Shown here piece after piece: positions 32,877 to 58,279 of a stretch of DNA of 64,000 bases. Position numbers and translations under genes: made by a program. This DNA comes from a virus: the IMG/VR virus record IMGVR_UViG_3300045988_057025; one strand, given 5' to 3'. The notes beneath the pieces are model-generated. The model did not search any database and was not told where the DNA came from. It worked only from the letters and a program-made list of their open reading frames with translations. Numbering within the stretch: the first letter of the stretch is position 1; each line of letters starts with the position of its first letter.

Positions 32877-33141
32877 TTTCTACAATTTTAAAACCGTTAT
32901 TAATTAAATATTCTTCGGGAGCAAATTGTAATTCAAAGAACCTATGCAGAGAGTATTTCTTCCTCTTACAGCATAGTTGATTCTTTTTCAATACAATGGG
33001 TTTATTAGAAGAGTAGTATTTTTCTTCCATTAGAGCAGCTCCCCAGCTCCATATTTGATATACTGAACTACAGTAGATAAACTTATCATGCGTATGCACA
33101 ATCTGTTTATCCTTCTCGTAAGTCCTCCGTGAGGTCGTCAT
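32857..33141 (-). CDS. hypothetical protein
   Basis: 94 aa ORF. Confidence 0.25.
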   Translation of the reverse strand: MTTSRRTYEKDKQIVHTHDKFIYCSSVYQIWSWGAALMEEKYYSSNKPIVLKKNQLCCKRKKYSLHRFFELQFAPEEYLINNGFKIVENETGCD

Positions 33142-43159: not shown

Positions 43160-43362
43160 TTTGTTAACTTATCAATTACATTTACTATAGATTCTTCTCC
43201 AGCTATGAAACCAGCTCTATGAGCATTCATAATAAGTTTCTTCAAACTTTCTAGCTCCTCTTTTGACTTAAGAGTATTGCTAGTATAAATCTCTACTAGT
43301 TCTTTTATGTATCTTTCCATATCAAAACATTTTATAGTACCCGAAGTGGGACTCGAACCCAC
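43156..43362 (-). CDS. hypothetical protein
   Basis: 68 aa ORF. Confidence 0.3.
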   Translation of the reverse strand: MGSSPTSGTIKCFDMERYIKELVEIYTSNTLKSKEELESLKKLIMNAHRAGFIAGEESIVNVIDKLTK

Positions 43363-43422
43363 ACGCCCTCAATGGGCATCAGAGCTTAAATCTGACGTGT
43401 CCACCAATTCCACCATCCGGGC
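43338..43422 (-). tRNA. tRNA-Leu(TAA)
   Basis: cloverleaf; anticodon loop TTTAAGC; long variable arm; T-loop GTGGGTTCGAGTCCCAC. Confidence 0.8.
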
Positions 43423-43538
43423 ATATGGTAGCTATTCTCACGAACCGCTACCGAGAGATAATCCTAAAGTATCATTTTTCTAATCTTCTTACTAGATTAG
43501 TCTCCGAATTGTTAAATTCAAAGTTAAAAACTGTTAAC

Positions 43539-43850
43539 TTACTTAAACTGTAGACAGGTGTTAATAAACTTATCAACATCAGTTCCACAATCAATATAGT
43601 TAGGGGTAACTTTTTCAAAGTATCTTAGATTAGCTTCTGTGCCTATTAACCCAAGCTCTTCAAAATCGTAACCCTCTCCATGAATATCAAAGGGTAGTCC
43701 AGGACTGAATGTCAACCAGGCTACTCCTTCAAATTCGCAACAAATACAAACTGTCAACCCACTTTCTCTTAGTCTGTCTAAGATTTGTGGACTGACAGTC
43801 TTTAATACTACACACTCACCCGAGTTCGGCGAGTCTCCGTTTGATTTCAT
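43539..43850 (-). CDS. hypothetical protein
   Basis: 103 aa ORF. Confidence 0.3.
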   Translation of the reverse strand: MKSNGDSPNSGECVVLKTVSPQILDRLRESGLTVCICCEFEGVAWLTFSPGLPFDIHGEGYDFEELGLIGTEANLRYFEKVTPNYIDCGTDVDKFINTCLQFK

Positions 43851-44190
43851 CTTCGGACAAGCTTTCTAACTTCTCAGATTGTTTCTTAGCTAACAGTTCC
43901 GTCAGGCGAGCCTTTTCAGCAGCCTTATTCTTAGCTGTCTCTCTATCAGCCTTCTCTTTTAGCTTATCCGTTATAATCTCCTTCACAATATTGAACTTCA
44001 ATTCAAGTTCGGTATTGCTGGGAGTATCATTAGTTATGAAAGACTTTCTTGGACTTTTAGCTAGTTCCTCATCGTAAGAAACGGCTAATTTATCCAATAC
44101 TGGCAGGCTCAAGTCCCACAAATCTTCTACACTCAGATTACCTTTACTAGTTGCGAAACGCAACTTCATTTTTGACGCTTGTTTAAACAT
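43816..44190 (-). CDS. hypothetical Lys/Glu-rich protein
   Basis: 124 aa ORF. Confidence 0.3.
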   Translation of the reverse strand: MFKQASKMKLRFATSKGNLSVEDLWDLSLPVLDKLAVSYDEELAKSPRKSFITNDTPSNTELELKFNIVKEIITDKLKEKADRETAKNKAAEKARLTELLAKKQSEKLESLSEDEIKRRLAELG

Positions 44191-44192
44191 AA

Positions 44193-46208
44193 TTAGAAAA
44201 TGATTTTAAATGATTTATTATCAACTTTTACAACAACATCATTGTGTGATGTGCTAGAAAATCCCAATCCACTCAACTGGTCATCACTGTACTCAGCTTT
44301 TGCTCTAGAACCAAGAGCTTCAAACACTCTTCTATGCTCCTTTTCAAGGTCAGCTCTCAGATATTCATTAAAGAAACCTCTAACAGGGTCTGGATTCTTG
44401 CATCCATCTATCATAAAGAACAGATGCTTGTTTCCTATAGCGTTGCCTTCCCAATGATTAGGAGAGAACATAATACAAGAAACCTTCTGGAATTTCATTG
44501 TATCAATTCCCCACTCGTTAGTAGATTTGAACGATGTAGAACCCTCTTTAATAGTAGGAGTCATGGAAATGTTTCTTTGTCCATCAACATGGATACGAGC
44601 AACTTCAATGTATTCCTTGCTCAGAACTACTTTTCCATACTGGAATTTGTGAAGTTCTCCATTAATCTCGATTTCCATTTCGAAACCAAAATCAATACTT
44701 TCCCTCTTATAGAAGTTATGCACTCTTACCACATAATCTCCCGGTCTTAGTCTGCTAGGGTCTGTCCATATGATGTTCTCAACAGCATCTCTAGTTTTTC
44801 CGGAACCTGCATTCATGTCAACATCAAGAGTTCCTCCAGTATAACCAGTTTTGCTTCCATAATAGATTTCTCTTCCACCAGGTTCGGTTACATGAAGGTC
44901 AAGGTCATCATAGTTAAACCAGTGAAGAGAGCATCTCATGAAACCGTCTACATTTCCACCAGCAGCCTTTACCTTCTCCTTGAAGGAATCGGCTACAGAA
45001 CCATTATAAACCCAAGCAAAGTTGTTATTCCACTTAAACAACTGTCCAGCATCCGGATTTTCAGGAGCAGTCAGAGTAACAAAGTTGGGAATATGTCTGT
45101 TCTCTACCAAGATAGAAACCTCCTTAGCTCCTGGAAGTACATTCTTGACAAAGGCATCAGCAGAAACTTCTTGGGCTTTGGTAAACTCTTTTGGATTTAC
45201 TGTAGAAGTCTCAGAGAGCATATCAAACATTCCTCCCTTCATCTTTGCTCTAGTATCTCTATTTACGAATAGAACATCATTCACAGAAATATCTTCCACA
45301 TGAGCATGACGACGAGGAAGTGCATCAGTAAGACCTAGCTCTTCTACCTTCTTCTGAGCGGCTTCAATTTGTTTCTTAGTAATAAGAGCAGTAGGTCTCT
45401 TATAGTTAGCAGGAGCCATGATGTTTTCATACGCTCTTACGGCTTTCTCCAGATCTACACCATTGCTTAGATCAATAAGTAAAGTTCCCATAGCCGTATT
45501 TCTAATCTTAGCTATAGGAGACTTAAAGTTTAACCAGCAATAGTTAGTTCTTACTTCTGGACTCAGAGTTTGAGCAGTAACTAGTGTTCTTCTAAATTCC
45601 TCCAAACTCTTCAAGAACTCTGCACCTCTATAGAGATTATTTCCTTCTATAAGCTCAATAACAGTTTCAACTGCCTCCAGCTTAAGCTCGCTGATAGAGC
45701 GTTCAAATACCCCAGCTCTTGCTCTGACATCTCCCCTGTAACCGGCAGCAGAGTCAAAACCATGAACTCGCCTGTTGAACTTGAAGTTATTCGGAATAGT
45801 TACGTACAGATGTGTCCAAGTTCTAGTTGTTCCATCAGGGAGTAGTTGAACATTATGGTCACAACCATGAAATTCGTTCACATCTTGAATGAAGACATCT
45901 CCTATTCCAGCTTCCTTAACTAATTTAGCTAGAGCCTGTGCTGTTTTCTCGTATCCAGGAGTGTGCACATCATCCCAGAATGTTTTAGTCTTATATGTTT
46001 GAGGGTCAATCGCTACAACTTTACCATAATGCCGGATAAAAGATTTACAGGCATTGCAGTTATGGTCTTGTCTAACGGTTTCATCTTCAAACGACAGAAG
46101 ATAGCCCATCCAAAGGAGGTCTTTATCAACATTAGCAACAAACAGGTTTTCTGCAATCATATTATTGAAAGCAGCTTCTACATCTTTCTTAAAATTCTTA
46201 AATTCCAT
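44193..46208 (-). CDS. large hypothetical protein
   Basis: 671 aa ORF, no recognisable motif. Confidence 0.35.
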   Translation of the reverse strand: MEFKNFKKDVEAAFNNMIAENLFVANVDKDLLWMGYLLSFEDETVRQDHNCNACKSFIRHYGKVVAIDPQTYKTKTFWDDVHTPGYEKTAQALAKLVKEAGIGDVFIQDVNEFHGCDHNVQLLPDGTTRTWTHLYVTIPNNFKFNRRVHGFDSAAGYRGDVRARAGVFERSISELKLEAVETVIELIEGNNLYRGAEFLKSLEEFRRTLVTAQTLSPEVRTNYCWLNFKSPIAKIRNTAMGTLLIDLSNGVDLEKAVRAYENIMAPANYKRPTALITKKQIEAAQKKVEELGLTDALPRRHAHVEDISVNDVLFVNRDTRAKMKGGMFDMLSETSTVNPKEFTKAQEVSADAFVKNVLPGAKEVSILVENRHIPNFVTLTAPENPDAGQLFKWNNNFAWVYNGSVADSFKEKVKAAGGNVDGFMRCSLHWFNYDDLDLHVTEPGGREIYYGSKTGYTGGTLDVDMNAGSGKTRDAVENIIWTDPSRLRPGDYVVRVHNFYKRESIDFGFEMEIEINGELHKFQYGKVVLSKEYIEVARIHVDGQRNISMTPTIKEGSTSFKSTNEWGIDTMKFQKVSCIMFSPNHWEGNAIGNKHLFFMIDGCKNPDPVRGFFNEYLRADLEKEHRRVFEALGSRAKAEYSDDQLSGLGFSSTSHNDVVVKVDNKSFKIIF

Positions 46209-46218
46209 TTTAAATCTA

Positions 46219-46440
46219 TTAAGTGTTCAACTTTTTGTTCATTTCTCCTTCTAAATTCCTAAGAGTTTCTATACTCTCCTCATAGAACTTATCCTTACCT
46301 AATTCACAGACTTTGTAATTAGATAATATTTGCTGGAATCGCAAATGTGGACTACATTCTATGATTTGAGCTAGTCTAGTTAAAATCTTAAAGTTAGCTT
46401 GTTTTCTAAGCTCAATAGCCTTTTCAATCTGGGCTTCCAT
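46219..46440 (-). CDS. hypothetical protein
   Basis: 73 aa ORF. Confidence 0.3.
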   Translation of the reverse strand: MEAQIEKAIELRKQANFKILTRLAQIIECSPHLRFQQILSNYKVCELGKDKFYEESIETLRNLEGEMNKKLNT

Positions 46441-46921
46441 ACTTGTTGATAATATCTAACTCTAATTCTTTAACCTTACTCTCATATAGAGAATCTTCGG
46501 CATATCCAATCCTATCTAGGAATCTATAATAGTCCTCTTCTGGATCGTACCTACTTAGAATAAATTGCTTATAAGCAAATACACAGCTTATCCAACTATC
46601 AAACTTGAAATAGGACATCGTTCTTGAATTATACAGTCCGAACAAATTATTGTTGTCCTTACAAAGTTTAGACTTGAAGTTACCAGATTCTAGAATAGCC
46701 TGAGCTGTTATGATAGCAGGACTTGGGAAATCATAGTGTTTAAGAGTATTATACAATACTTCCTCATTCACCTCCTCCATCAAATAGAATGGATGTTCCG
46801 GCATCAGCATAATTTTCTCCTCTGGAAACCTCGCAGAATGTATCCAGTGGTGCAAGGAATAACCAGTTGCAAATCCGAATACAATACTAATCATTAAAAT
46901 AATTAAAACTCTCTTTTTCAT
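46424..46921 (-). CDS. membrane-anchored peptidoglycan hydrolase (glucosaminidase-type lysin)
   Basis: 165 aa; N-terminal anchor; QAILESGNFKSK...NNLFGL matches FlgJ/glucosaminidase domain signature. Confidence 0.55.
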   Translation of the reverse strand: MKKRVLIILMISIVFGFATGYSLHHWIHSARFPEEKIMLMPEHPFYLMEEVNEEVLYNTLKHYDFPSPAIITAQAILESGNFKSKLCKDNNNLFGLYNSRTMSYFKFDSWISCVFAYKQFILSRYDPEEDYYRFLDRIGYAEDSLYESKVKELELDIINKYGSPD

Positions 46922-47214
46922 ATCTCAATAGAATTAATAAATCTTGCATCATTACATAGTTGATAAACAACTTTATCAAGTTCTGGGACATAGACTATAT
47001 AATAGTAATCAAAGAATTGGTTATTATCTTCGAACCCTATAATTATCCCTTTATGTCCACTATCTACCACACAGTCTCTAAATAAATATTTTGAAATATC
47101 TTGGCGGATGTCATCGTGGCCTGCCTGTAAAGCTGATATACCCCAGTAGGAAGTATTTGTACCCCTAACTTCCTTTCCTAATAAGTCCTTATCGTATGAA
47201 ATCTCAGTAATCAT
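46918..47214 (-). CDS. hypothetical protein
   Basis: 98 aa ORF. Confidence 0.3.
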   Translation of the reverse strand: MITEISYDKDLLGKEVRGTNTSYWGISALQAGHDDIRQDISKYLFRDCVVDSGHKGIIIGFEDNNQFFDYYYIVYVPELDKVVYQLCNDARFINSIEI

Positions 47215-47371
47215 GATGTTTTCTCAGGCTTATCCTTTTCTATGTTAACTACTATCATAAGCTCGGAATTAGGATTCTCACGATTCTTCGCCTTCCTGGC
47301 ATCTTCTTCGGTATCATACTGACCTATAATGAATGGGATATTATTTCTGCACTTAATCAGGTAGTATTCCT

Positions 47372-47563
47372 TCATTTTTCAATTCCAAAATAACTCTTTA
47401 ATAATTCTATATTCCCTTCCTTAAGATGTCTTATAATAGCTTTTCTCTCCTTTTCATAGAGAATAATCTTGCTTTCTAAGATATTTATCTTATGGTTGAA
47501 ATTATTTTCATATTCTTCCAGAGCTTCGGCAATGACTTTAATCGCAGTACAATCCTTCATCAT
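47372..47563 (-). CDS. hypothetical protein (shortened to internal Met to limit overlap)
   Basis: table ORF 47372..47701 overlaps neighbour by 164 nt; internal start MMKDCTAIK gives 64 aa. Confidence 0.25.
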   Translation of the reverse strand: MMKDCTAIKVIAEALEEYENNFNHKINILESKIILYEKERKAIIRHLKEGNIELLKSYFGIEK

Positions 47564-47987
47564 ACTCTTCGTTATAATAGTCCTCGCTTCCACTATCATC
47601 TCCGATAGGATTCTCCCAGCCATACTTTTCCGCAGTAGCCTTAAATAATGGCAAATACATAGCATAGTTATCCTCTGGATAATCCTCCAAGCCTTCCTCA
47701 AGAACTCTATTCCATCTAAGAACTACAGCAAACATCAGACTTGCAGAAATACCTCTCTTGTCAAGGGCTTTTTCAAATCCGAACTCTACATCTTCTTTAA
47801 GTTGGGAAAGAATATTCTCTCTAGTCCACTCTTTGGGTTCAGGATAAGGTTCATCACTATTCCACTTAAAACCTATTTTCTCTAACTGTTCCTGTGTCAG
47901 AAATTGAGCTAATCTAACTCCAAATCTATCGTCAAGAAATACAGACCATTCTTCGTAATTGTTTACGATTTCATCTAATGTTTTCAT
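47538..47987 (-). CDS. hypothetical acidic protein
   Basis: 149 aa ORF. Confidence 0.3.
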   Translation of the reverse strand: MKTLDEIVNNYEEWSVFLDDRFGVRLAQFLTQEQLEKIGFKWNSDEPYPEPKEWTRENILSQLKEDVEFGFEKALDKRGISASLMFAVVLRWNRVLEEGLEDYPEDNYAMYLPLFKATAEKYGWENPIGDDSGSEDYYNEEYDEGLYCD

Positions 47988-48313
47988 TATAATTCAGACA
48001 AATAAATGTTTTGAGGATATTCGTTAAATACTAGTAGAGTTACTGGACAAATCCAAACTCTATCGTTATAATTCTTACTTTTACACAAGTAAGTAGCTCC
48101 ATTCTCATCTTCTTCAATCTTAGATAGAACAATCTTAGCTACAGAAGGGTCAACCATCTGCAACCTAACAAATCTATCATCAAGAGAATCAAGAAGATCG
48201 TCAGCCCCGCCAACCATAGCCAACTCTCCTGGGTCTCCATCGAAGTCTGGCCACCAATAAAACCAGACTCCTCCCACTTTTACAAATTCAAATGTTTTTC
48301 GCATTAAACACAA
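47987..48313 (-). CDS. hypothetical protein
   Basis: 108 aa ORF. Confidence 0.3.
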   Translation of the reverse strand: MCLMRKTFEFVKVGGVWFYWWPDFDGDPGELAMVGGADDLLDSLDDRFVRLQMVDPSVAKIVLSKIEEDENGATYLCKSKNYNDRVWICPVTLLVFNEYPQNIYLSEL

Positions 48314-48324
48314 ATTAAATTAAA

Positions 48325-48359
48325 CAAAAAATACCCCAACAACTTTCGCTGCTGGGGTA
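48325..48359 (-). terminator. rho-independent terminator downstream of tRNA-Glu
   Basis: TACCCCA-loop-TGGGGTA hairpin followed by T-run on minus strand. Confidence 0.5.
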
Positions 48360-48364
48360 CATAG

Positions 48365-48436
48365 TAACGCCAACGGGATTCGAACCCGTATGGCAGGCGT
48401 GAAAAGCCTGAATCCTAACCATTAGATGATGGCGCT
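48365..48436 (-). tRNA. tRNA-Glu(TTC)
   Basis: anticodon arm CAGGC-TTTTCAC-GCCTG; T-arm ACGGGTTCGAATCCCGT; acceptor AGCGCCA/TGGCGTT. Confidence 0.8.
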
Positions 48437-48439
48437 ATC

Positions 48440-49114
48440 CTACTGCACAATCAAGCTATAAGCTTCTTGCAACAGTTTAATAGTTGGAACCATACGGTTA
48501 TCAACAACTATTATTTTATAAATGTTCAGAATTTCTTTGTAGGTTAAAGATGTACAAGTTAGAAATATCTGCACATCTTCGTTTACAGAACCATTTGACA
48601 ATCCTAAATCTACTTTAATCATACTGGGTAATGTCCCAATCTGAGAAATATCCCAAGTAGATTTAGTTCTCCTGAAAACTTCCCGCTGTTTGGAAGTAAG
48701 TTGCTTTTCTTTCAATCTAGACTCAATAATAGTACCATCAAACGTTAACGAACCTCCATCGGTATTACTATTATTTAATGCTAGCTGAATCTTCTGAACT
48801 GCAGAGTCTTTAGGTTTTGGCTTAAGTTGCACTCCTTCCTTCAAGCCCTTAATAATCTGCAATGAAGGAATAAAGTCTTTTATTTGAGTTGCATTCCATA
48901 CAAGAAATTTTCCAGGACTATCCTTAACAGTAACTATATACTTAGTCCCTCCGTTCAATGGAATAATCACTTGTAAGTCTGCATCACTCATTTTACTTAA
49001 ATGGTCTGATACTCTAACTTTGACGTTTCCAATGACAAAGTAGCGAGAAACAGTTGTTTCCGCTTCGATAATCTCAGTAGCAGTTGCTACTAAATACTTT
49101 TCTAATCTAGTCAT
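48440..49114 (-). CDS. hypothetical protein (TAG stop)
   Basis: 224 aa ORF ending in TAG 4 nt upstream of tRNA-Glu. Confidence 0.3.
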   Translation of the reverse strand: MTRLEKYLVATATEIIEAETTVSRYFVIGNVKVRVSDHLSKMSDADLQVIIPLNGGTKYIVTVKDSPGKFLVWNATQIKDFIPSLQIIKGLKEGVQLKPKPKDSAVQKIQLALNNSNTDGGSLTFDGTIIESRLKEKQLTSKQREVFRRTKSTWDISQIGTLPSMIKVDLGLSNGSVNEDVQIFLTCTSLTYKEILNIYKIIVVDNRMVPTIKLLQEAYSLIVQ

Positions 49115-49141
49115 AAAAATTAATCTAATTTAATGGTTAAG

Positions 49142-49214
49142 ATCCCCCACTCGGATTCGAACCGAGGTCTCGAGATTACAAATCACGTGTTCTAACCAAC
49201 TAAACTACAGGGGA
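49142..49214 (-). tRNA. tRNA-Thr(TGT)
   Basis: anticodon loop TTTGTAA, one mismatch in anticodon stem; T-arm CTCGGTTCGAATCCGAG; acceptor TCCCCTG/TGGGGGA. Confidence 0.7.
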
Positions 49215-49221
49215 ATAAATG

Positions 49222-49255
49222 CCGAGGCTGGGGGATTCGAACCCCAACCTTCACA
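49222..49255 (-). other. orphan tRNA 3' half (anticodon 3' stem + T-arm + acceptor 3' strand), diverged duplicate of the 3' half of tRNA-Asp
   Basis: TGTGAAGGTTGGGGTTCGAATCCCCCAGCCTCGG; pairs perfectly with acceptor and anticodon stem of the 5' half at 49915..49953. Confidence 0.55.
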
Positions 49256-49258
49256 GTG

Positions 49259-49320
49259 CCGAGAGTACCAGACTCGAACTGGTGACCTTCGCATAGACAG
49301 TGCACTATTCTACCACTGAA
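49259..49320 (-). tRNA. tRNA-Asp(GTC), intact copy
   Basis: CGAGGGT acceptor, D-arm GTTCAGTGGTAGAAT, anticodon loop CTGTCTA (pos 37 is U, one stem mismatch), T-arm ACCAGTTCGAGTCTGGT. Confidence 0.65.
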
Positions 49321-49341
49321 CTAACCCTCGGTGTAACTGGA

Positions 49342-49893
49342 TTACTCCAGACTAATTAAACCCTTCTCTAACATAATATGGTGATTCGGACATAACCATA
49401 CTAAATTATTCTCGTTGTTAATCTCCTTAATAAGAGTGTCTTCGTCAAATTCTAATATTCCTTTAAGATGATGTACTTCAAGTATTGCATCAAATTCATG
49501 ATTATGACAATATTGACATACTTTCTCACGTTCGGAACTTTCTAATACTCTACGAGCATTAGTCCTTATTTCTTGACATTTAGATGATAAGTACTTCTGC
49601 CCAGATGTATAATAACCTAATGTTTTGTTACCAATTCCATTAAGTTCTTCCCAGCAACTACGACACATTTCTGAATCTTTATGCTTAGGTTTACCACATC
49701 TAGGACATATCTTGTTTTCATCGTGCTTTATCCTACCTCTATTATTGTAAGAAGCAGCACACGAATGACTACAAAACTGTTTCTTCCTCACATCTGCGAC
49801 CCTCTGATTATCTAGTACTTCGATTACCTTACCACATTCCTTACAGTGGTTAGGATTCTCATAATACAATTTAAGAGATTGTTCTCGATTCAC
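49342..49893 (-). CDS. HNH homing endonuclease
   Basis: 183 aa, GTG start; Zn-finger CxxC pairs; C-terminal HNH motif VHHLKG...NLVWLCPNHH. Confidence 0.75.
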   Translation of the reverse strand: MNREQSLKLYYENPNHCKECGKVIEVLDNQRVADVRKKQFCSHSCAASYNNRGRIKHDENKICPRCGKPKHKDSEMCRSCWEELNGIGNKTLGYYTSGQKYLSSKCQEIRTNARRVLESSEREKVCQYCHNHEFDAILEVHHLKGILEFDEDTLIKEINNENNLVWLCPNHHIMLEKGLISLE

Positions 49894-49914
49894 AGATAAG
49901 TTTAATTAATTTTA

Positions 49915-49953
49915 ATGACAGTGTGATATGCAAGCCATTACACCACAGCCTCG
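49915..49953 (-). other. orphan tRNA 5' half (acceptor 5' strand, D-arm, anticodon 5' stem and GTC anticodon loop)
   Basis: CGAGGCTGTGGTGTAATGGCTTGCATATCACACTGTCAT; acceptor CGAGGCT is exact complement of AGCCTCG in 49222..49255. Confidence 0.5.
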
Positions 49954-50030
49954 AAAATGCAGGTATTTATCTCGTTACACCTGCGAGTCCGGCAATCCTT
50001 TCTTATATACCGCGTGAGCTGGCGGTTTTG

Positions 50031-50104
50031 TAGGGCTAATCAGACTTGAACTGATAACCTCCACATTATCAGTGTGGTGCTCTAACCAGTTGAGCTATAG
50101 CCCT
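50031..50104 (-). tRNA. tRNA-Ile(GAT)
   Basis: acceptor AGGGCTA/TAGCCCT; anticodon arm CCACA-CTGATAA-TGTGG; T-loop TTCAAGT. Confidence 0.8.
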
Positions 50105-50110
50105 ATTATG

Positions 50111-50671
50111 TGGACCTAACGGGAGTCGAACCCGTGTCCAAACAACCCTCGTTACAAGGATAACGTGCGTCTCATTTTTATTATATCAGCTAGGGAGTTC
50201 TAGCATTTAGGTAGTTTTATAAGTCTTACAAGAGTCCATACTAAGTATTTCTCTAGATGCTTATCTACAAGCTACCAAACTATAGGGCTGACCGAAGTCA
50301 ACGTTCCACCACTCCATTTACGTTGGAGAACGGAATGATACTTTAGAGATTCGTCACATCTCACGGAACACATCTTCCATCTGTTTTATGACATAGGAGA
50401 TTCAGTCTTACTAACTCTTAGAGTGTTCTGATTAAGAGCATATTACTAGGATTAGAGCCTAGCTCTCCATTATATCAATATACTCAACCTCTTCTGTTTC
50501 TAGGTCTCTCCCGTAACCCGACTTAGTTAATAGTGTCTACCAACAAGCCAGCAGCTTAGGCTGCCATTCTTACTTCGCTATAAGTAGCATTTATTATTTT
50601 CCTTCGTTTAAAGAGATTGCGCTCTACACGTCCTTATAATTCGTAATCGCCTGTCAAATCCAAGTAGGCCC
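50111..50671 (-). ncRNA. ssrA: tmRNA (SsrA)-like RNA, unusually long (~560 nt)
   Basis: 5' GGGCCTACTTGGATTTGACAGGCGATT matches tmRNA 5' consensus GGGGCUGAUUCUGGAUUCGACGGGAUUU; 3' GGACACGGGTTCGACTCCCGTTAGGTCCA matches GGACGCGGGUUCAACUCCCGCCAGCUCCA; G3-U70 pair; P2 pairing AAGGACGTG/CACGTTATCCTT; candidate tag ORF ...GCT ACT TAT AGC GAA GTA AGA ATG GCA GCC TAA (ATYSEVRMAA*). Confidence 0.6.
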
Positions 50672-50713
50672 ATGTTCCAGTTTATCTCTGATTAGAAAAC
50701 TGGAGAAAAGAAA

Positions 50714-50971
50714 TTATAGCATTATAGTTGAGCCAGGAGGCAAAATTGTGACCTTACAAGTAAGCAAACGACGCGTATCCTCAACAGTAAACAGCTTAGG
50801 ATAGCATAGACCGCTACGCCCACCAATGATAATTAAAGCATCTCCGTACCTCTGAACTATAGTTCCAGGCTCCATTTCCTCGTCACAGAACCAATTTACA
50901 ATCTCAGCTACATCTCCATCTTTCATATTTGTAAGATGTGTTGTGATTGTCTTATTAATTACTTTTGCCAT
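50714..50971 (-). CDS. hypothetical protein
   Basis: 85 aa ORF. Confidence 0.3.
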   Translation of the reverse strand: MAKVINKTITTHLTNMKDGDVAEIVNWFCDEEMEPGTIVQRYGDALIIIGGRSGLCYPKLFTVEDTRRLLTCKVTILPPGSTIML

Positions 50972-51533
50972 GTAAACACTGTTTTAATATTTCCTTAGTA
51001 ACTACTCTATCAGCTTCTCTAGATAGCTTATCCAACTTTTCTAAGTCAAACTCGCTAGACTGGAACTTAAATTGAATCCAAGTTGGTTCACTAGGTCTAT
51101 AGTCTAAATAAGTCTCACACTTATCAGTTCCCAAAACCTCATGCACCATAGCTAATATACGTTCACCAGCAGCTTTAGTTTTTACGAATCCAGATAAATC
51201 ATATCCAACACCTCTAGAACTCCAGTATTCTCCTTCCTCTGGACGAATGTCTTTTGGTTCCCAATGCCAGGCAGAAACACCGGACCTAGGATGAGCAATA
51301 CGATGAGCATACTCCATTACGGATTCCGAATTTGGATCAGAAGGATTCTCTGGATGAGAGCCATATTGCACTATGCCTTTTCCGTTATCACTTCTTATTT
51401 CGAATGTTAGTTTACAATGTCTGCAAGTTCCAGAGGTAACTCCTCCGCAAGAGAAACAACCACTGGTCACAGAATCACATCCACAATTAGGACAACCCCA
51501 TTCCTTAAATTCTGAGAATAATATAGATAACAT
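50955..51533 (-). CDS. hypothetical Cys-rich protein
   Basis: 192 aa; N-terminal CPNCGC...CFSCGG...CRHC cluster. Confidence 0.3.
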   Translation of the reverse strand: MLSILFSEFKEWGCPNCGCDSVTSGCFSCGGVTSGTCRHCKLTFEIRSDNGKGIVQYGSHPENPSDPNSESVMEYAHRIAHPRSGVSAWHWEPKDIRPEEGEYWSSRGVGYDLSGFVKTKAAGERILAMVHEVLGTDKCETYLDYRPSEPTWIQFKFQSSEFDLEKLDKLSREADRVVTKEILKQCLHGKSN

Positions 51534-51826
51534 TAGTAATTAGGTTTAAATTCTACTTCCTTTAATACAACATACATCTTACCATCCTTCTGTTCTATAC
51601 AACCATTGGCCTGTAGAAAATTAATTATAAAGTCCATAGGAATGTGGTAATTGTCAGTTACAAGCATACTGCCATCAATATGATAGCGTTCTTTTCTCTC
51701 TAATCTAGTGGGATTACCATTTATAGTAATCTCACCAGAACATTCATTATCCTTATCTGGTTTAATTCCCTTTATGTAAATAGAATAACCAGCTTCAGCT
51801 AAATAAACTTGTTGTATTACACTCAT
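51533..51826 (-). CDS. hypothetical protein
   Basis: 97 aa ORF. Confidence 0.3.
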   Translation of the reverse strand: MSVIQQVYLAEAGYSIYIKGIKPDKDNECSGEITINGNPTRLERKERYHIDGSMLVTDNYHIPMDFIINFLQANGCIEQKDGKMYVVLKEVEFKPNY

Positions 51827-52248
51827 AGTTTTGGAACATCAGAACGGTTATCATGATAGCCCTCGTCCCCAACAAGTTGGGCTAAACAACCGTGCATATA
51901 AGGAACAAGTTCGGGTTTCTCCTTATAACACCTGTATAGCATCCAACTCATGCTCATAGAGTTTCCACTATGACCATTATCAAAGTACGGAAGTTTGTCT
52001 TTGATAGCCTCAATCAGCTCAAATAAGCTAGGATATTTCTCATAGAAGGCTTTACATTCCTCTAGACTCATTTCTTTGAAAAACTCGGTAAACGATAAGG
52101 CCTGCTTTATACAACCCATTTCATAACCAAATAGGTCATTTTCTTCAAATGTACCATCACCAGCTTCAATGAATAAACGATTGAAACGTTCGATTCTCTC
52201 CTGAAATTCTTTCGGAAGAGATTCCTTTGTAAGATTCTTGAAATCCAT
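51823..52248 (-). CDS. hypothetical protein
   Basis: 141 aa ORF. Confidence 0.3.
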   Translation of the reverse strand: MDFKNLTKESLPKEFQERIERFNRLFIEAGDGTFEENDLFGYEMGCIKQALSFTEFFKEMSLEECKAFYEKYPSLFELIEAIKDKLPYFDNGHSGNSMSMSWMLYRCYKEKPELVPYMHGCLAQLVGDEGYHDNRSDVPKL

Positions 52249-52279
52249 AATCTAATTTTAATTGTTAAAAATAACTTAG

Positions 52280-52352
52280 TAACGGGAGTCGGATTCGAAC
52301 CGACGACCTTCAGGTTATGAGCCTGACTAGCTACCTCTGCTATCATCCCGCG
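52280..52352 (-). tRNA. tRNA-Met(CAT), first of three CAT tRNAs (Met/fMet/Ile-lysidine not resolved)
   Basis: anticodon arm TCAGG-CTCATAA-CCTGA; T-arm GTCGGTTCGAATCCGAC; D-stem TAGC/GCTA; imperfect 1-72 pairing. Confidence 0.65.
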
Positions 52353-52560
52353 ATATTACAAATGCTTTTTAATTAGTTTACAATGATTATACTCTCCTCC
52401 CCATCTAATAGGAAACTCTTTTTCCTTAGCCTCTTTATACTTCTCTGCCTGTTTCTTGTCTAAGAAGATTTGGCAATCAGTTTCATAATTTTGAGGAGCA
52501 TTAGCTGGTGATAATTTACTACAACTACATATACTTTCATAATTTTTTAAATAAAGTTTG

Positions 52561-52633
52561 TGGACACGCAGGGACTCGAACCCTATCTTCCGGTGTGCAA
52601 AACCAGCGCTCTAGCCATTTGAGCTAACGGCCC
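52561..52633 (-). tRNA. tRNA-Ala(TGC)
   Basis: acceptor GGGCCGT with G3-U70; D-arm GCTCAAATGGCTAGAGC; anticodon loop TTTGCAC; T-loop TTCGAGT; lower acceptor stem pairs poorly. Confidence 0.6.
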
Positions 52634-53162
52634 ATTTTTGGGATTTTCTTTTTAATTGGTGACATACCCATAAATTTCCACTGTTAAGATTCCATAACTT
52701 AACAACACCAGATAAGTTTTTTTTGTTTGAATCATGTTCTAGTAGCATAAGTTCGCAACCATGCTACTCTCTCAGTTCATCGACTATCGTGTCAGAAAAG
52801 GTCTCTATGATTTCGCAGGGACTGGCTTCAACTTAAACCCCGAATGGATTTTTACCTTGCCAGGTCAGGATATTATTACGTTTCTAGCACTCTGAATTGA
52901 TTTAGCCTGTTTAATCTTATAATCACGAACTACTTCTTTCATATAAGAGTTAAATTCCTTCATGTCTTTCCATGAAATCTCATTAGCTAGTTTTGGAGTT
53001 TGAAACATTTTGTACTTTTCTAATAGGTCTTTCATTTCTCTCTTTAGTTTTCAAAGCATTTTCACACGCTTGTTTCTTCATTACATATGGACAATCACAA
53101 TTTCCACTGTAGTACCAACAACAATAATCACACTGATGCATAATCTAATATAAGGTCAATAG

Positions 53163-53234
53163 CTGGGGCACATGGACTCGAACCATGATTCTTTGATTAA
53201 CAGTCAAAAGTTCTGACCTTTGAACTATACCCCA
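53163..53234 (-). tRNA. tRNA-Asn(GTT)
   Basis: acceptor TGGGGTA/TGCCCCA; anticodon arm TTTGA-CTGTTAA-TCAAA; T-arm CATGGTTCGAGTCCATG. Confidence 0.8.
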
Positions 53235-53479
53235 ATAGTTAATTTTCTCCACGGGTGTAGATAAGTACCCCTTTGGTACTTACCTTTTAGTAGTATCTTT
53301 ACTCTAGACCTCTATAAGGAGGCGGAATAGTTCCAGAAACTAACCATGTATAGCTCTTAGAACTCTGTTCAAAATACCACTTAGCAGCTTTCTTCACAAC
53401 ATTAATTACTTTCTTCATAACATCAAAGTTTAAAATTGTTAATAATTAATCTAATTCAGAGCCACAAAAGGAGTTTCGT

Positions 53480-53557
53480 TGCGGAGGTAGGATTCGAACC
53501 GTTTATGACGATTTCTAGGTTATGAGCCTAGCGAGATGACCACTTCTCTACTCCACG
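53480..53557 (-). tRNA. tRNA-like gene with CAT anticodon (initiator-like C1xA72 mismatch; irregular T-arm)
   Basis: acceptor CGTGGAG/CTCCGCA; D-arm GAGAAGTGGTCATCTC; anticodon arm CTAGG-CTCATAA-CCTAG; 11-nt variable region and only 2-3 bp T-stem around TTCGAAT. Confidence 0.45.
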
Positions 53558-53982
53558 ATATTGGCAGCTACTTTACATCCGCTACCCAGGGATGCCTCTA
53601 TCACCAGTGAGGCACGGACTATTCTAACCGTATAGCACGACTGGTTGGTAACGTCTCCAGACACGGCATTTAGACTGAAAATGTCGAAACAGTGATTTAA
53701 AGATTAAATAGGCTCTGGAAGATATTTCCAAATGTAGCCATACTATGATTTGGTTTTATTCTTACAGCATCCTATAATATGACTCTATGCAGATTTATTG
53801 TCAGTAATTCCGTTATTAATTAACCATTCCTAAGCTTCTCTGGAACCAAAGAATACCTGTATAAAATTACCTGCTAAGTCATACTAAGCAATTAACTTTG
53901 CGTTACTTTTTCTAATTTTTATATTATTTGCCTTCAAAACTTTGTAAATAGTGTCTTTACAGCACCCTATTTTTTCTTGTAT

Positions 53983-54339
53983 CTAAGAACTAGTATATCC
54001 CAATCTAGCTAATTCTACAATTTCACTATGATTGTATAGAATAGTGCCATCTCCTCCTTTAGAGGCATTGTACCCATTAGAACCATAAGTTCCTAGCTCT
54101 TTTATCCAATAGATTTCTCTTTCAGATAATTCAGAGTTACTATCTACATATTCCAATTCCTCTATCATAAAGTTCTCAACACCATACTTATTCATGGCAT
54201 CATATAAAGGTCTTTTGTTGCATCTTTCTTTCTAAAAGTCATAACAATGTTCCTTCCAGCGCTCTTCTATAGAAGTAGTAGTTTTTCCTACGTATCGCTT
54301 GCTATTAATTAAATTTGTAATGCAATAAATATATGCCAT
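53983..54339 (-). pseudogene. GIY-YIG homing endonuclease interrupted by in-frame TAG codons
   Basis: MAYIYCITNLINSKRYVGKTTTSIEERWKEHCYDF-TAG-KERCNKRPLYDA MNKYGVENF...NASKGGDGTILYNHSE...; table ORFs 54232..54495 and 53983..54195 are the same frame separated only by TAG at 54232-54234; second TAG at 53983. Confidence 0.55.
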
Positions 54340-54359
54340 ATTTTTAAATTTAAAATTAG

Positions 54360-54444
54360 AATCCGTGGAGGGATTCGAACCCTCATTAAAGATTTCTCTT
54401 TTCAGTTTTGCAGACTGATGGCTAAACCATTCACCCACACGGAT
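54360..54444 (-). tRNA. atypical tRNA with GCA (Cys) anticodon and a long hairpin variable arm
   Basis: acceptor ATCCGTG/CACGGAT; anticodon arm TCAGT-CTGCAAA-ACTGA; variable arm AAAGA-GAAA-TCTTT (5-bp stem); T-arm GAGGGTTCGAATCCCTC; 85 nt. Confidence 0.5.
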
Positions 54445-54445
54445 A

Positions 54446-54748
54446 TTAAGATTTAAAGTACTTCTCTCTAAATGGGATATTAAATAATGAATCATTAATA
54501 TCCTTATCAGTTATTTCCCTACCTAGAGCCTTCTCCGCACATTCGCTACAGATAAACACATGGTGGTCTGGATAATAATCTTTACCTCCCCCTTTGTAAT
54601 AAGAGGAGAATTTCTTTGCAGCTTCTTTTTCAAAATTGGTTAGCTTAAAGTAATTTATTATCTTGTTCCAAACCTCATCAATAAACATTGGAGAGTTATG
54701 GTCTCCATAATAAAATTCTTTATTACATACTGTACACTTTATTTTCAT
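54446..54748 (-). CDS. hypothetical zinc-ribbon protein
   Basis: 100 aa; CTVC...CSEC pairs. Confidence 0.3.
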   Translation of the reverse strand: MKIKCTVCNKEFYYGDHNSPMFIDEVWNKIINYFKLTNFEKEAAKKFSSYYKGGGKDYYPDHHVFICSECAEKALGREITDKDINDSLFNIPFREKYFKS

Positions 54749-54763
54749 AAAACTTAAATTTTG

Positions 54764-54835
54764 AGTAGGTAATGAGAATCGAACTCACATCCTCGGCATG
54801 GCAAGCCGATGCACTAACCGTTGTGCTATACCTAC
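54764..54835 (-). tRNA. tRNA-Gly(GCC)
   Basis: perfect acceptor GTAGGTA/TACCTAC; anticodon loop TTGCCAT; T-arm GTGAGTTCGATTCTCAT. Confidence 0.8.
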
Positions 54836-54841
54836 AAATGT

Positions 54842-54916
54842 GCAGATAGAGAGACTCGAACTCTCCCCTTCAGATTGGAAGTCTGACGTGCTCAAACCAT
54901 TAACACCACATCTGCA
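54842..54916 (-). tRNA. tRNA-Gly(TCC)
   Basis: acceptor GCAGATG/TATCTGC; anticodon arm TCAGA-CTTCCAA-TCTGA; T-arm GAGAGTTCGAGTCTCTC. Confidence 0.8.
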
Positions 54917-54952
54917 TAAGGAGAGTTATACGATACTCTCCTAAACGCTATC

Positions 54953-55294
54953 TTAAGATAGTAATTCCTGTGCCTCAATCTCGCCGATTATTTTAGTAAC
55001 CGCAATCTTGAACGGATTTCCCTTAGTCTTGTCAAACAGATGTACATCACGTACCTCGTCAACCTTGTCAGGAACATTCACCTTTCTTTTCCCTCTCTCT
55101 ATGGTCTTCCAAGTGATGACTTCGCACCGTTTCACGTCATAAACGCTATCGTTGCGGTCTACGTAGACCTTGAAGAAGTTCTTCTTATGCTTCACAATCT
55201 CAACTCTTTTAAAGTTTTTGATGTTAGCACGAAATTTCAAATCGCATTTTCCATTAGGTAAGAAAATCAATTCTGCCATAATGATACTCCGCAT
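54953..55294 (-). CDS. hypothetical protein
   Basis: 113 aa ORF. Confidence 0.3.
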   Translation of the reverse strand: MRSIIMAELIFLPNGKCDLKFRANIKNFKRVEIVKHKKNFFKVYVDRNDSVYDVKRCEVITWKTIERGKRKVNVPDKVDEVRDVHLFDKTKGNPFKIAVTKIIGEIEAQELLS

Positions 55295-55415
55295 AGTCGG
55301 AGATTCAAAGTTAAACTATGTTAATTCCAGTCTTTCGTCTGGCACTCCACCTCGTTTTAACCAATAGCTACTGTTCTTCACTACTTGAGCTAAGCTCTAA
55401 ACTGGGATAAAGGTA

Positions 55416-55799
55416 TTATTCTATATACATAAATGGTTTTCCAAATTCTTGCCTGAAAGACTCAAGCCAGCCTTCCATTTCCTCATCACTATCAAAATAG
55501 ATAGACTCATCATGTCTCTCAGAGAACTCTAGAATAATATGCGGCTTCTGGTATACTATTCCATCCTTGTAGAAGGACGTTCTCTTACTAATTGATTCGA
55601 GCATCCCTTTCTCAGAGTAAGTCCCAAAGCATGGGTCTAGAAGATACCAATAATCAATATGCCTTTTCCAGAATAAAAATTTGGTATCCGCTATTCTATG
55701 CTTCCATTCTGGATGTTTTCTAGTTTTAAAAACTAGTATCCTCTTTATTAAATTTCCATTAATATATTTATTCATAATTAATCCCAATATTCTGGACAA
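55416..55799 (-). CDS. hypothetical protein
   Basis: 127 aa ORF. Confidence 0.3.
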   Translation of the reverse strand: MSRILGLIMNKYINGNLIKRILVFKTRKHPEWKHRIADTKFLFWKRHIDYWYLLDPCFGTYSEKGMLESISKRTSFYKDGIVYQKPHIILEFSERHDESIYFDSDEEMEGWLESFRQEFGKPFMYIE

Positions 55800-56206
55800 T
55801 CATCTGTCGTTAATAATCCTTTCTCGCATAGACCTCCATCATAGAATATACATGATGAGCATGAAAGATTGTCCCTGGACTCATATTCCTGAATACCTTC
55901 CTGGATATCTTTCTTAGCCTTATATCTATCTTTTCTATTCTCTTTCTTATATTCGTACTGCATCATCTTACTTCTGTAGGGAGAAGTGCAATTCTTAAGC
56001 ATTTTGGCATACTTGGAATCATTAAGAAAATCCGTAATTGATTCACAAATTCTCAGTGCTCTATTTCTGAAAATAGGAACATTATACTGAACACTGGCTT
56101 TAATTCCGTTTACCGGGATATAGAACTTCCCGCAAGAGTTATAAACTTTTTTAGCTCTAGAAATCCACTTTCTTTTAGAAAGCTCTCTTCTTAATTTTCT
56201 GTCCAT
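55778..56206 (-). CDS. hypothetical basic protein (trimmed to internal Met to clear tRNA-Cys)
   Basis: table ORF 55778..56437 runs through tRNA-Cys; Met at 56206 gives 143 aa. Confidence 0.3.
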   Translation of the reverse strand: MDRKLRRELSKRKWISRAKKVYNSCGKFYIPVNGIKASVQYNVPIFRNRALRICESITDFLNDSKYAKMLKNCTSPYRSKMMQYEYKKENRKDRYKAKKDIQEGIQEYESRDNLSCSSCIFYDGGLCEKGLLTTDDCPEYWD

Positions 56207-56226
56207 AGGCAAATAAATTAGTGTAG

Positions 56227-56300
56227 AATCTGGAGTGGGATTCGAACCCACGAAACACGGTTTTGCAGACCGTTCCCTTAGACCACTCAGGCATCCAGAC
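56227..56300 (-). tRNA. tRNA-Cys(GCA)
   Basis: acceptor GTCTGGA/TCCAGAT; anticodon arm ACGGT-CTGCAAA-ACCGT; 5-nt variable loop; T-arm GTGGGTTCGAATCCCAC. Confidence 0.75.
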
Positions 56301-56327
56301 ATAAAGGGGAGACTAGCTCCCCAGTTT

Positions 56328-57512
56328 TTAGAGTACCAAAGAATCGTATCTTCCTGTACGATACAGAGATGGCTTACTGTTAGGATCTTTAATCCAGTAG
56401 TAGTTAATTTCGTTACCGTTCTTAGTAACAATAACATTCAACTTCTTGTCAATAGCGATAATCTCGTCACTGTAGAAGCCGTCTCCCACCTTAAGATTGC
56501 TGAACTTGGTAGAAGAGTAGATAAAGTAATACGACAGGTTGTGGAAGTTATGGCGACGATACTCATAGTATTCGTTGAGAGCTTTTCTTTCCTCCATAGT
56601 ACAGTTATCCTCATCGTTAACAATAGGCTTAGGTATAGGATTATTAAATCTCTCAACAGCCTTGGAGAAGTTCTCAATAGAGAACTTATTCTTGTCTTGC
56701 TCAATTTCTCCAGTGTAAGCATAACCTCTGATACAGGAATACTCATACTCATTAGTTACTACATTGAAGAAACTCTTAGCCTTTCTCAAACCTTCAATTC
56801 CATGAATGTTAACTTCATTAACTATAGTTTTGAGAATATCAATAGTTGATATGGTCAAAGAATCAATGAAGTCAAGCAAATCTTGACGTGCTTCTGGAAC
56901 TTCCAAGGCATCGTCTAGATATTCGTTTACAACCTTCAAATCAAGATTTTCAAACTTCTTGACGTAGCGGATTCTAGACGGACGTCCTACCATATTATCG
57001 TTGATAGACATTGCATTAGTAGTCAACAAGAATACCTTACGATACTTAGAGTTATAAACTCCATCCATAATTTGGAGGATTGTAGAATCCGACTCGCTGA
57101 AGTTCTTTTCAAACTCGTCTAGGAAGAGAACACAGTCTCCCTCAATGCCAGAGAGAAACTCAATCATAGATTGATTATGGTCTCCCATATCCTTTACTAT
57201 AATAACAGGAAGGTTCAATTTGTTAGCTAATTCTTTAGCTGTGACAGTCTTTCCAGTACCTTTTGTACCAGTAAGCATGATTCCCAAGTTTCCTTCCGTG
57301 TTACTATAAGTTTTGATTACATAGTCTATGAAATCTTCCTGCAGTCCATATATCTTGTACGGAAATACGAACTTGTCTGCATACTTATCCAGGTGATAAC
57401 CTGTCATTGTCAGACTAATACCGTAAATACCGACCGGAAGAGATTCCGAAACCTTGTAACCTGAGCCTACTTGGGTGTATGTAGACCCGGAACACATCCA
57501 AACTTTGTTCAT
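56328..57512 (-). CDS. AAA+ family ATPase
   Basis: 394 aa; Walker A MLTGTKGTGKTVTAKE; Walker B VLFLDEFE. Confidence 0.6.
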   Translation of the reverse strand: MNKVWMCSGSTYTQVGSGYKVSESLPVGIYGISLTMTGYHLDKYADKFVFPYKIYGLQEDFIDYVIKTYSNTEGNLGIMLTGTKGTGKTVTAKELANKLNLPVIIVKDMGDHNQSMIEFLSGIEGDCVLFLDEFEKNFSESDSTILQIMDGVYNSKYRKVFLLTTNAMSINDNMVGRPSRIRYVKKFENLDLKVVNEYLDDALEVPEARQDLLDFIDSLTISTIDILKTIVNEVNIHGIEGLRKAKSFFNVVTNEYEYSCIRGYAYTGEIEQDKNKFSIENFSKAVERFNNPIPKPIVNDEDNCTMEERKALNEYYEYRRHNFHNLSYYFIYSSTKFSNLKVGDGFYSDEIIAIDKKLNVIVTKNGNEINYYWIKDPNSKPSLYRTGRYDSLVL

Positions 57513-57743
57513 TTCTTTATTTTTAATTGTTATTTAATATGAATGTTTCAGAACATTCAGTTAATTAAAGTTCTCCACTGTCTTTGATAAGTTCTTTAGC
57601 CTTATCCATTCCAGCTTCGTAAGCCTCCACAACGTACTGTATAGCAGTTTTTGAATCAATCTGATTCATGGAGTTGCTATTTTCTACCAATTCTTGAATA
57701 ATTTCACTTAACTCTTTCATAATCTATAATCGAATAAAAGTTG

Positions 57744-57825
57744 TAGGGTAGGAGGGACTCGAACCCTCACACATTTCTGTACTAGATCCTAAGTCTAGCG
57801 CGTCTACCAATTCCGCCACTACCCC
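57744..57825 (-). tRNA. tRNA-Leu(TAG)
   Basis: anticodon arm CTAGA-CTTAGGA-TCTAG; long variable arm; T-arm GAGGGTTCGAGTCCCTC. Confidence 0.75.
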
Positions 57826-57829
57826 AAGG

Positions 57830-58279
57830 TTACAATTCCCTGTCTCTTATTTTCTCAGCCATAGTACACATCTCTTGATAATACTCGACTACCTTATTGA
57901 ACAATTCTTCAGGAACTATTGTACACTTTTCACTTCTCTGCCCAGGAAGCCAATAACGATTTATCATTCTCTTCTTTTCAAGACCTATTCTAGTTGTATT
58001 GCTATCTATAAAGACCTCATAGAAATCTTCTTTAATATCTTCTCTAAGGGCAGTAATATCTTTAGTTATCTTAAAATAACCAAATGATTGTCTATTGAAG
58101 TTTATTTGAAAGCATTTTCCCTCAAAACTTTTTAGAAGTTGATTATTTTCTTCTTCTTTTAGTCTCCTTCTTTCTGCTTCCTCTCTAGCAATATTATCTA
58201 AATATTCACAATACTCTTGAAGAGAACAGCCAGGATGCTTCCTGGCATATTCTTTCATTGGACTTTCTCTTGACCACAT
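57830..58279 (-). CDS. hypothetical protein
   Basis: 149 aa ORF. Confidence 0.3.
   Translation of the reverse strand: MWSRESPMKEYARKHPGCSLQEYCEYLDNIAREEAERRRLKEEENNQLLKSFEGKCFQINFNRQSFGYFKITKDITALREDIKEDFYEVFIDSNTTRIGLEKKRMINRYWLPGQRSEKCTIVPEELFNKVVEYYQEMCTMAEKIRDREL

Follow-up and report, generated by a model that had tools for sequence, protein, structure and literature searches.

Zeta crAss-like phages, whose genomes span 145-192 kb, carry suppressor transfer RNAs (tRNAs) and have mostly their late genes recoded (Yutin et al. 2021, PMC7886860). A 2025 survey of the Zeta group tabulates amber-suppressing genomes of 176-189 kb that hold polA together with a CTA suppressor, and it also records some members that have tRNA-Sup(CTA) yet show 'no suppression' (clade 8, Lera, ctE7s22; PMC12386605). 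Metaproteomics of two crAss-like phages demonstrated that TAG is read as glutamine (Gln) (PMC9523058). In TGA-recoded Agate phages, a stop-recoded group I intron endonuclease lies in an early gene and is predicted to be made late (Borges et al., bioRxiv 10.1101/2021.08.26.457843). Here we describe a 64,000-nucleotide stretch of the IMG/VR virus record IMGVR_UViG_3300045988_057025, called the window in what follows, in which three nuclease-type genes of the early arm carry in-frame TAG codons. The phage has very probably reassigned TAG to an amino acid, almost certainly Gln, and the nuclease genes would then be intact and dependent on amber suppression.

One of the three is a free-standing GIY-YIG homing-endonuclease gene on the minus strand (53704-54339; 211 codons). 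It opens with the ATG at 54339-54337 and continues in one frame to a TAA at 53706-53704, passing six sense TAGs at codons 36, 119, 152, 170, 185 and 199 (low coordinates 54232, 53983, 53884, 53830, 53785 and 53743). TAG makes up six of its eight Gln-type codons. A preliminary description of this DNA had placed TAGs at 54232-54234 and 53983-53985 in the GIY-YIG frame, which translation bears out. However, it counted only these two, missing the other four, and it ended the gene at a TAA 24 nt past the second TAG that is in fact out of frame. The 263-residue protein called here by public pipelines (54495-53704) reads across a tRNA gene, and the start at 54339 is preferred.

The GIY-YIG protein matches PF01541 in Pfam (E=6e-13, 49.3 bits against a cut-off of 22.6) and homing endonucleases among the PHROGs (E=4e-31), with phrog_314 spanning residues 1-206. 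Across 120 aligned sequences, residues Y5, Y16, G18, R27, H31, E75 and N91 do not vary, and a database search recovers 994 full-length homologs. Matches to HTH_23 (E=0.0045) and NUMOD1 (E=0.0098) each fall under the Pfam cut-off. When the protein is aligned with 119 database homologs, position 152 is Q in all 119 and position 119 is Q in 106, and Q is the most frequent residue at positions 36 and 170. Because code-15 translation of TAG could account for some of these database Qs, the DNA of paralogs was inspected. Paralogs in three related loci (L013, L015 and L072; comparison loci are numbered with the prefix L) have real CAA or CAG at positions 36, 119 and 152 and TAG elsewhere, and their frames are intact in every case. 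They sit at other sites of the tRNA array.

The GIY-YIG gene itself is 100% identical across seven loci (six public contigs). Relative to L072 it lies within an island of 100% identity (53479-55078), outside of which identity is 65-91%, and no empty site for this copy was found among the loci compared. The tRNAs that flank the gene, both on the minus strand, are unusual. That at 54359-54444 is 86 nt long and combines a long variable arm with a GCA (Cys) anticodon, although ARAGORN leaves the anticodon of its L011 counterpart undetermined; the tRNA-Met at 53478-53557 is 80 nt long and has a 13-nt insert ahead of the T arm.

The second gene (20533-21009, minus strand) encodes an endonuclease-type protein of the T5orf172/MUG113 kind, which belongs to the GIY-YIG superfamily. 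It had been overlooked in the preliminary description, whose two endonuclease-type genes with in-frame TAG are both real. Its 158 codons, ending in TAA, include nine sense TAGs (codons 25, 62, 88, 95, 116, 120, 127, 146 and 152) among 13 Gln-type codons, and its ATG overlaps the preceding stop (TAATG). In Pfam the product matches T5orf172 (E=4.6e-10, 40.4 bits, cut-off 20) and MUG113 (E=2.8e-9, 37.9 bits, cut-off 22.3). The gene is the subject of a 461-bp insertion/deletion polymorphism: positions 20548-21008 are replaced by 21 bp in L073/MT836281, and the boundaries against MT836281 are clean. It is found in L088 with the identical nine TAGs and is missing from L087 and L089. The insertion and the GIY-YIG identity island together form the pattern expected of recent homing, by predicted endonucleases, with co-conversion. 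Both genes appear to be recently mobile and are coded in the manner of late genes.

The third gene (23339-23884, minus strand, 181 codons) would join an I-HmuI/NUMOD-like DNA-binding module to an Hjc-like PD-(D/E)XK nuclease domain. It opens ATG AAA AAG TAG, its sole sense TAG being codon 4 (23873-23875), and it stops at a TGA (23341-23339) that overlaps the next ATG (ATGA). This opening and the open frame behind it had been described correctly, except that the ATG lies at 23884-23882 and not at 23888. The C-terminal part matches the resolvase-type phrog_244 (PHROG, E=4e-10), and a comparison with PDB sequences returns Hjc at E=0.3-0.7. From an AlphaFold model with a predicted local distance difference test score (pLDDT) of 88, Foldseek retrieves Hjc 1gef (prob 0.96, with a modest E=8e-3) and, for the N-terminal module, the DNA-binding part of I-HmuI 1u3e (prob 1.00, 53 columns). 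None of these matches is strong, and the fold and profile comparisons agree in a manner consistent with Hjc-like and I-HmuI-type modules.

A database search yields 312 full-length homologs of the Hjc-like protein, and the gene is present in every relative examined. In all ten loci where the upstream gene is visible it follows a primase-like (Toprim_2) gene, directly except in L089, where one small open reading frame (ORF) lies between. Since it occupies the same place in all relatives, it is a conserved gene and not a presence/absence element, and its interpretation as a mobile homing endonuclease, which had been based on a 100%-identity island, was dropped. Seven lineages with 66-100% nucleotide identity retain a single TAG at codon 3-5, ahead of the motif (T/L)NTSV and next to codons that vary. 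These genes contain 39 further Gln codons, of which none is TAG, an outcome with P about 7e-14 at the late-gene TAG rate. No start codon is consistently present after the TAG in the lineages compared, and the full-length protein would therefore need suppression. These patterns suggest selection on the N-terminal TAG, which might serve as a translational gate.

Together the three genes comprise 550 codons, and all 16 of their internal stops are TAG, with zero TAA, zero TGA and zero frameshifts. Under the trinucleotide frequencies of the strand, such an outcome has P about 7e-10, and runs of 158-211 random codons without TAA or TGA have P = 1e-4 to 7e-6. The rest of the window was represented by a non-overlapping set of 104 non-nuclease ORFs (18,550 codons). 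These early ORFs contain no in-frame TAG, Gln being written CAA 286 times and CAG 224 times, and they end in TAA (66), TGA (35) and TAG (3). Thus, the statement in the preliminary description that TAG is almost never a terminator here agrees with the count, and 48440-49114, the TAG-ended ORF that it named, is the only sizeable one. That ORF (48422-49114 on the minus strand when read on) has its TAG at 48440-48442 and a back-up TAA five codons later (48422-48424). The nucleotide following TAG is A 7, G 5, T 3 and C 1 times in the nuclease genes and A 41, T 28, G 26 and C 13 times in the late genes discussed below; no context preference stands out in either set.

A number of further ORFs appear to contain TAG when code 15 is applied to the window. 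These were rejected because the TAGs precede the true start or overlap tRNA genes (7915-8268, 15786-16142, 21009-21398, 29071-30375, 32292-32885, 33813-34631, 40551-41030, 46219-46509, 47372-47731, 52356-52748, 52983-53252, 54953-55657, 57565-57819 and 58795-59136). To the left of the window, early genes in L001 (16508-16906 and 20237-20725) end in tandem or repeated TAGs with a TAA or TGA a few codons on, as in ...WEC-TAG-TAG-GN-stop. Such endings are consistent with TAG acting as a leaky terminator that requires a back-up stop.

Neither ARAGORN nor Rfam finds a tRNA(CUA) in the window, just as the preliminary description had reported. It had proposed a search of the rest of the genome, and suppressors are indeed present just outside. 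The first, supA, is located at L007 603-673, about 8.2 kb past the right end of the window, and is the first gene on the early strand. The second, supB, lies about 2.5 kb beyond supA on the opposite strand, at the head of a divergent block. It was read in L013-L016, from IMG/VR contigs that also carry supA and are 98-99% identical to L007 over most of the shared tRNA-proximal stretch. Rfam recognizes both as tRNAs, with 43.9 bits for supA and 66.3 bits for supB. In pairwise tRNA comparison, the closest match to supB is the phage tRNA-Gln(UUG), with 71% identity and the same D-arm. The exact supA sequence has zero matches in IMG/VR.

Two observations concern the surroundings of supA. Directly 5' of the gene, at L014 8902-9095 and about 8 kb past the right end of the window, is a RAGATH-14 RNA (RF03145, 183 bits; gathering score 149). 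At L015 8700-8770 the tRNA in the supA position has a UUA (ochre) anticodon and supB (CUA) is kept; TerL, the large terminase, of the same contig (L018) has no in-frame TAA.

The preliminary description had also proposed looking for in-frame TAG in conserved late genes, and in close relatives such codons are abundant. Late genes were read in L027, which belongs to the same IMG/VR contig as L014 and is about 98% identical to L007 in their overlap. The divergent block there begins with small ORFs, followed by TerL (786 codons, 16 TAG; phrog_6681, E=1e-61). The portal gene (736 codons; P22_portal) has 32 TAGs, and six more late ORFs have 2-22 each. Across these eight genes TAG represents 108 of 200 Gln-type codons, with individual genes at 40-73%. 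TerL relatives in IMG/VR (67-99% identity) carry 5-31 TAGs in 55 of 55 cases, and at 11 of the 16 TAG columns of the L027 TerL, Q is the sole or main alternative residue. An exact search of metagenome contigs with a TerL 36-mer returned 13 other contigs, the window-identical contig not among them. We infer from its closest relatives that the late genes of this exact genome would be recoded as well.

TAG is also used by several other genes in the early arm of this phage group. A 396-residue ORF outside the window (L007 1953-3143), which follows supA as the first large gene of the early strand, contains seven sense TAGs, and early-arm TAG use is therefore not strictly confined to nucleases. It matches nothing in Pfam or the PHROGs, is divided between two ORFs in L008, and shows one TAG/CAR polymorphism between strains (TAG corresponding to CAA or CAG in L016). 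Additional TAG-carrying nuclease genes in the early arm of relatives include those of PDDEXK_5 (3 TAG) and HNH_3 types. In L100 (15016-18397), from a divergent amber-recoded contig of 220 kb, a GIY-YIG-like ORF with six TAGs interrupts nrdD. Its Pfam score is slightly under the cut-off, and the ORF probably encodes a homing endonuclease borne by an intron.

Read with the standard code, all three window genes are broken, and homing-endonuclease genes are known to decay after fixation. The preliminary description preferred to see decaying selfish genes, that is, pseudogenes that have accumulated nonsense mutations. This explanation is highly improbable, given that the 16 internal stops are exclusively TAG, that frames and conserved residues are intact, and that TAG occupies invariant or conserved Gln positions. 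Moreover, strains that diverge by 7-35% in the flanks have the same sequences here, the insertion polymorphism is cleanly bounded, suppressor tRNAs are present, and both the GIY-YIG and the Hjc-like proteins have full-length homologs in the hundreds. Another explanation raised at the time was that TAG is still a stop and that these genes are expressed by local, context-dependent programmed read-through. Such read-through is known in some viruses, and a window devoid of suppressor tRNAs would be in keeping with it. Yet there are two dedicated tRNA(CUA) genes a short way past the window, the 108 TAGs of the late genes extend over eight of them, no nucleotide is preferred after TAG, and TAG is avoided as a terminator. 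Read-through of this kind is thus not needed and is very unlikely. What has held up is the remaining suggestion, TAG reassignment as in some gut phages, to which the nearby suppressors and the TAG-dense late genes of relatives both point. Normal termination at TAG, a genome without suppressor tRNA and homologs with frameshifts were each sought as contrary evidence, and none was found.

Reassignment of TAG to Gln, the reading preferred here, would place the nuclease genes within a simple division of the genome. Two tRNA(CUA) genes would mark the junction of two divergent gene blocks, 8-11 kb past the right end of the window. Late genes (terminase, portal and tail-type) would write roughly every second Gln as TAG, and early genes are free of TAG and avoid it as a terminator too. 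The three window nuclease genes would be exceptions within the early arm, yielding a full-length product only under active amber suppression. Without suppression, translation would halt after 35 (GIY-YIG), 24 (T5orf172) and 3 (Hjc-like) residues, before the catalytic residues are reached. The suppressors would presumably be charged with Gln, suppression would rise during infection and delay nuclease production, and this delay may have been selected and not merely tolerated.

Several observations weigh against this account or parts of it. SupA is without a clear relative, the nearest phage tRNA being Arg(UCU) at 66%, and a minority of TAG positions align with E/D, A, K or M instead of Q. The late genes come from relatives of 98-99% identity and not from the identical contig, albeit bracketed by the 55 of 55 TAG-carrying TerL relatives. 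The amber-recoded relative L100 has GAA in place of the Hjc-like N-terminal TAG. Because supA heads the early strand, suppression may start early, which weakens a strict 'late only' timing. Finally, TAG positions of the GIY-YIG gene swap freely with CAA/CAG among paralogs, which fits neutral tolerance as well as selected gating.

Whether the TAGs of the early-arm nucleases do anything beyond encoding an amino acid is a separate matter. TAG may be an ordinary Gln codon in this phage, the nuclease TAGs having no regulatory role and having arisen by drift between CAG/CAA and TAG in genes that are dispensable until suppression sets in, or by import from amber-coded phages. This is quite possibly correct, if somewhat short of evenly balanced. 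The interchange of TAG with CAA/CAG among both GIY-YIG paralogs and TerL relatives speaks for it, as do the TAG share of the homing endonucleases (69-75%), which is inside the late-gene range, and the seven TAGs of the 396-residue ORF in the same arm. Likewise, some TAG columns of TerL are as well conserved (48-50 of 52) as the TAG of the Hjc-like gene, so that a single conserved TAG is not proof of selection. Tolerance is harder to reconcile with the Hjc-like gene, in which seven lineages, some with as little as 66% nucleotide identity, retain one TAG and no more, at codon 3-5, and write none of the other Gln codons as TAG. Nor does it readily accommodate the occurrence of TAG in three of three nuclease-type genes of the window compared with none of the about 104 other ORFs.

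Another possibility, somewhat less likely than not, is that the ambers of early-arm nucleases constitute a selected translational lock, in which the single TAG of the Hjc-like gene acts as an on/off gate and the mobile endonucleases (GIY-YIG, T5orf172, HNH and PDDEXK) are fully amber-coded. If this is true, the Hjc-like enzyme would appear only after suppressor tRNA accumulates, for example to resolve branched DNA before packaging. The homing endonucleases would be silent early and in cells or phages that lack the suppressor, and their spread would be confined to amber-recoded phages. Such a lock might also explain the apparently unused CUA suppressors in some Zeta crAss-like phages.

The window as a whole belongs to the early, or replication, arm of the phage. 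Every window gene is on the minus strand, the G+C content is about 35%, and the arm (1-63941) encodes PolA, NrdD, NAMPT, DNA and RNA ligases, helicases and a primase (PHROG) among its about 104 TAG-free ORFs, which identifies it as the replication and nucleotide-metabolism arm. An array of tRNA genes with interspersed small ORFs occupies 43337-63192 on the same strand, with 19 tRNA genes called by ARAGORN and one more by Rfam. It includes a tRNA-Gln(UUG) at 59651-59723. In all, the phage has about 27-28 tRNAs.

Window positions 52265-63941 are 100.000% identical to L007, over 11.7 kb of the contig NODE_18_length_191889 (ena:ERZ1310370). The same contig, on which window position x falls at about x+10015, supplied L090, whose range corresponds to window 32245-53159 and which was retrieved with the window protein at 42245-43159. 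Exact look-up of window proteins finds many public human-gut contigs of 186-192 kb. PolA of the window is 52% identical to that of IAS virus, and its best matches are mostly crAss-like, along with some unannotated gut contigs. A tblastn search with TerL gives 125 matches; among the matches listed, the annotated ones are crAss-like (26-29%), and the remainder are mostly Flavobacterium or Bacteroides phages or unannotated gut contigs. When window pieces and flanking loci were compared with GenBank phages by megablast, nothing but the short unannotated fragments MT837398, MT836281 and MT836666 came up. Size, PolA, tRNA load and recoding features fit a Zeta-group crAss-like phage of the human gut with a genome of roughly 187-192 kb, and within that group the amber-suppressing polA genomes of 176-189 kb (PMC12386605). 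For related genomes the same survey predicts Prevotella or Bacteroides as hosts.

Three features of the window stand apart from the nuclease genes. Its last 59 bases (63942-64000) differ from the otherwise 100%-identical contig, are G+C-rich and translate to an M24-peptidase-like motif (HGVGHFLNVHEGPQSIRMN). They have no exact match in GTDB genomes and are probably a chimeric join or a foreign contig end. At 50108-50671 (minus strand), directly downstream of a tRNA-Ile, Rfam recognizes a transfer-messenger RNA (tmRNA; RF00023, 62.3 bits, gathering 47) that ARAGORN does not call. Its tag frame, read by eye as GCU ACU UAU AGC GAA GUA AGA AUG GCA GCC UAA (ATYSEVRMAA), ends in UAA. The recoding literature searched makes no mention of a phage tmRNA, and a tie to ribosome rescue under amber suppression is speculation. 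The third feature is a tRNA-Ala(UGC)-like gene at 52561-52633 (minus strand), which has a G3:U70 pair and one poorly paired acceptor-stem base; it scores 39.5 bits in Rfam and was missed by ARAGORN.

How does this phage compare with systems that are already known? It has no essential difference from the crAss-like or Zeta phages in which TAG is assigned to Gln (code 15 type). They share a genome of 186-192 kb, PolA, a large tRNA array and a phage tRNA(CUA); in both, the structural and packaging genes are rich in TAG, the replication block lacks it, and TAG aligns with Gln. Genome-wide amber reassignment in a crAss-like phage explains the finding, and the phenomenon is already established (PMC7886860, PMC12386605, PMC9523058). 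Two items were not found in the cited recoding papers: a pair of unlike CUA tRNAs, one on each strand where the blocks meet, and the systematic TAG coding of nuclease genes that lie inside the early block. With the 'no suppression' Zeta phages the present one has in common the phage group, the suppressor type and the rarity of TAG as a terminator, with back-up TAA. However, it uses TAG heavily in late genes and is therefore not one of those puzzling cases.

The individual nuclease genes also resemble known enzymes. T4-like free-standing GIY-YIG proteins (Seg proteins and the I-TevI family) likewise have a GIY-YIG domain; the helix-turn-helix (HTH) or NUMOD-type modules that follow it have candidate counterparts here in sub-cut-off matches. 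They are likewise placed between genes or among tRNA genes; the flanking identity island fits co-conversion. Translation that depends on amber suppression distinguishes the present gene from the T4 enzymes, and its endonuclease activity is predicted. Archaeal Hjc would share the C-terminal domain of the protein encoded at 23884-23339, as judged by profile (phrog_244) and fold (1gef). In contrast to Hjc, the phage protein appears to add an N-terminal I-HmuI/NUMOD-like module typical of homing endonucleases and a conserved N-terminal amber; the fold E-value is modest, and a resolvase role is putative. T4 endonuclease VII and T7 endonuclease I would be functional analogs of such a resolvase, whose gene here lies in the replication block beside a primase.

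The closest parallel for the coding of these genes is the Agate intron endonuclease, likewise a homing endonuclease in an early region that carries a recoded stop. That a recoded stop delays an early-region homing endonuclease has already been proposed for Agate phages (10.1101/2021.08.26.457843). Agate phages use TGA (Trp), whereas the present Zeta crAss-like phage uses TAG (Gln). Here the genes are free-standing, between tRNA genes or between ORFs, and not intron-borne, and they represent several families, GIY-YIG and T5orf172 in this phage with PDDEXK_5 and HNH in relatives.

Knowledge of phage code reassignment is unchanged by this case. Annotation of this abundant gut phage requires translation with TAG as Gln; under the standard code its terminase, portal and tail genes and its homing endonucleases look fragmented or like pseudogenes. 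With regard to biology, the amber-dependent early-arm genes within the window are nucleases only, and the 396-residue ORF just upstream is TAG-coded as well. The single-TAG Hjc-like gene offers a simple test system for recoding as a timer of dangerous proteins. Relative to the systems described previously, what is new here is a clear case of TAG coding in several families of free-standing nucleases, together with a conserved nuclease that has one N-terminal amber.

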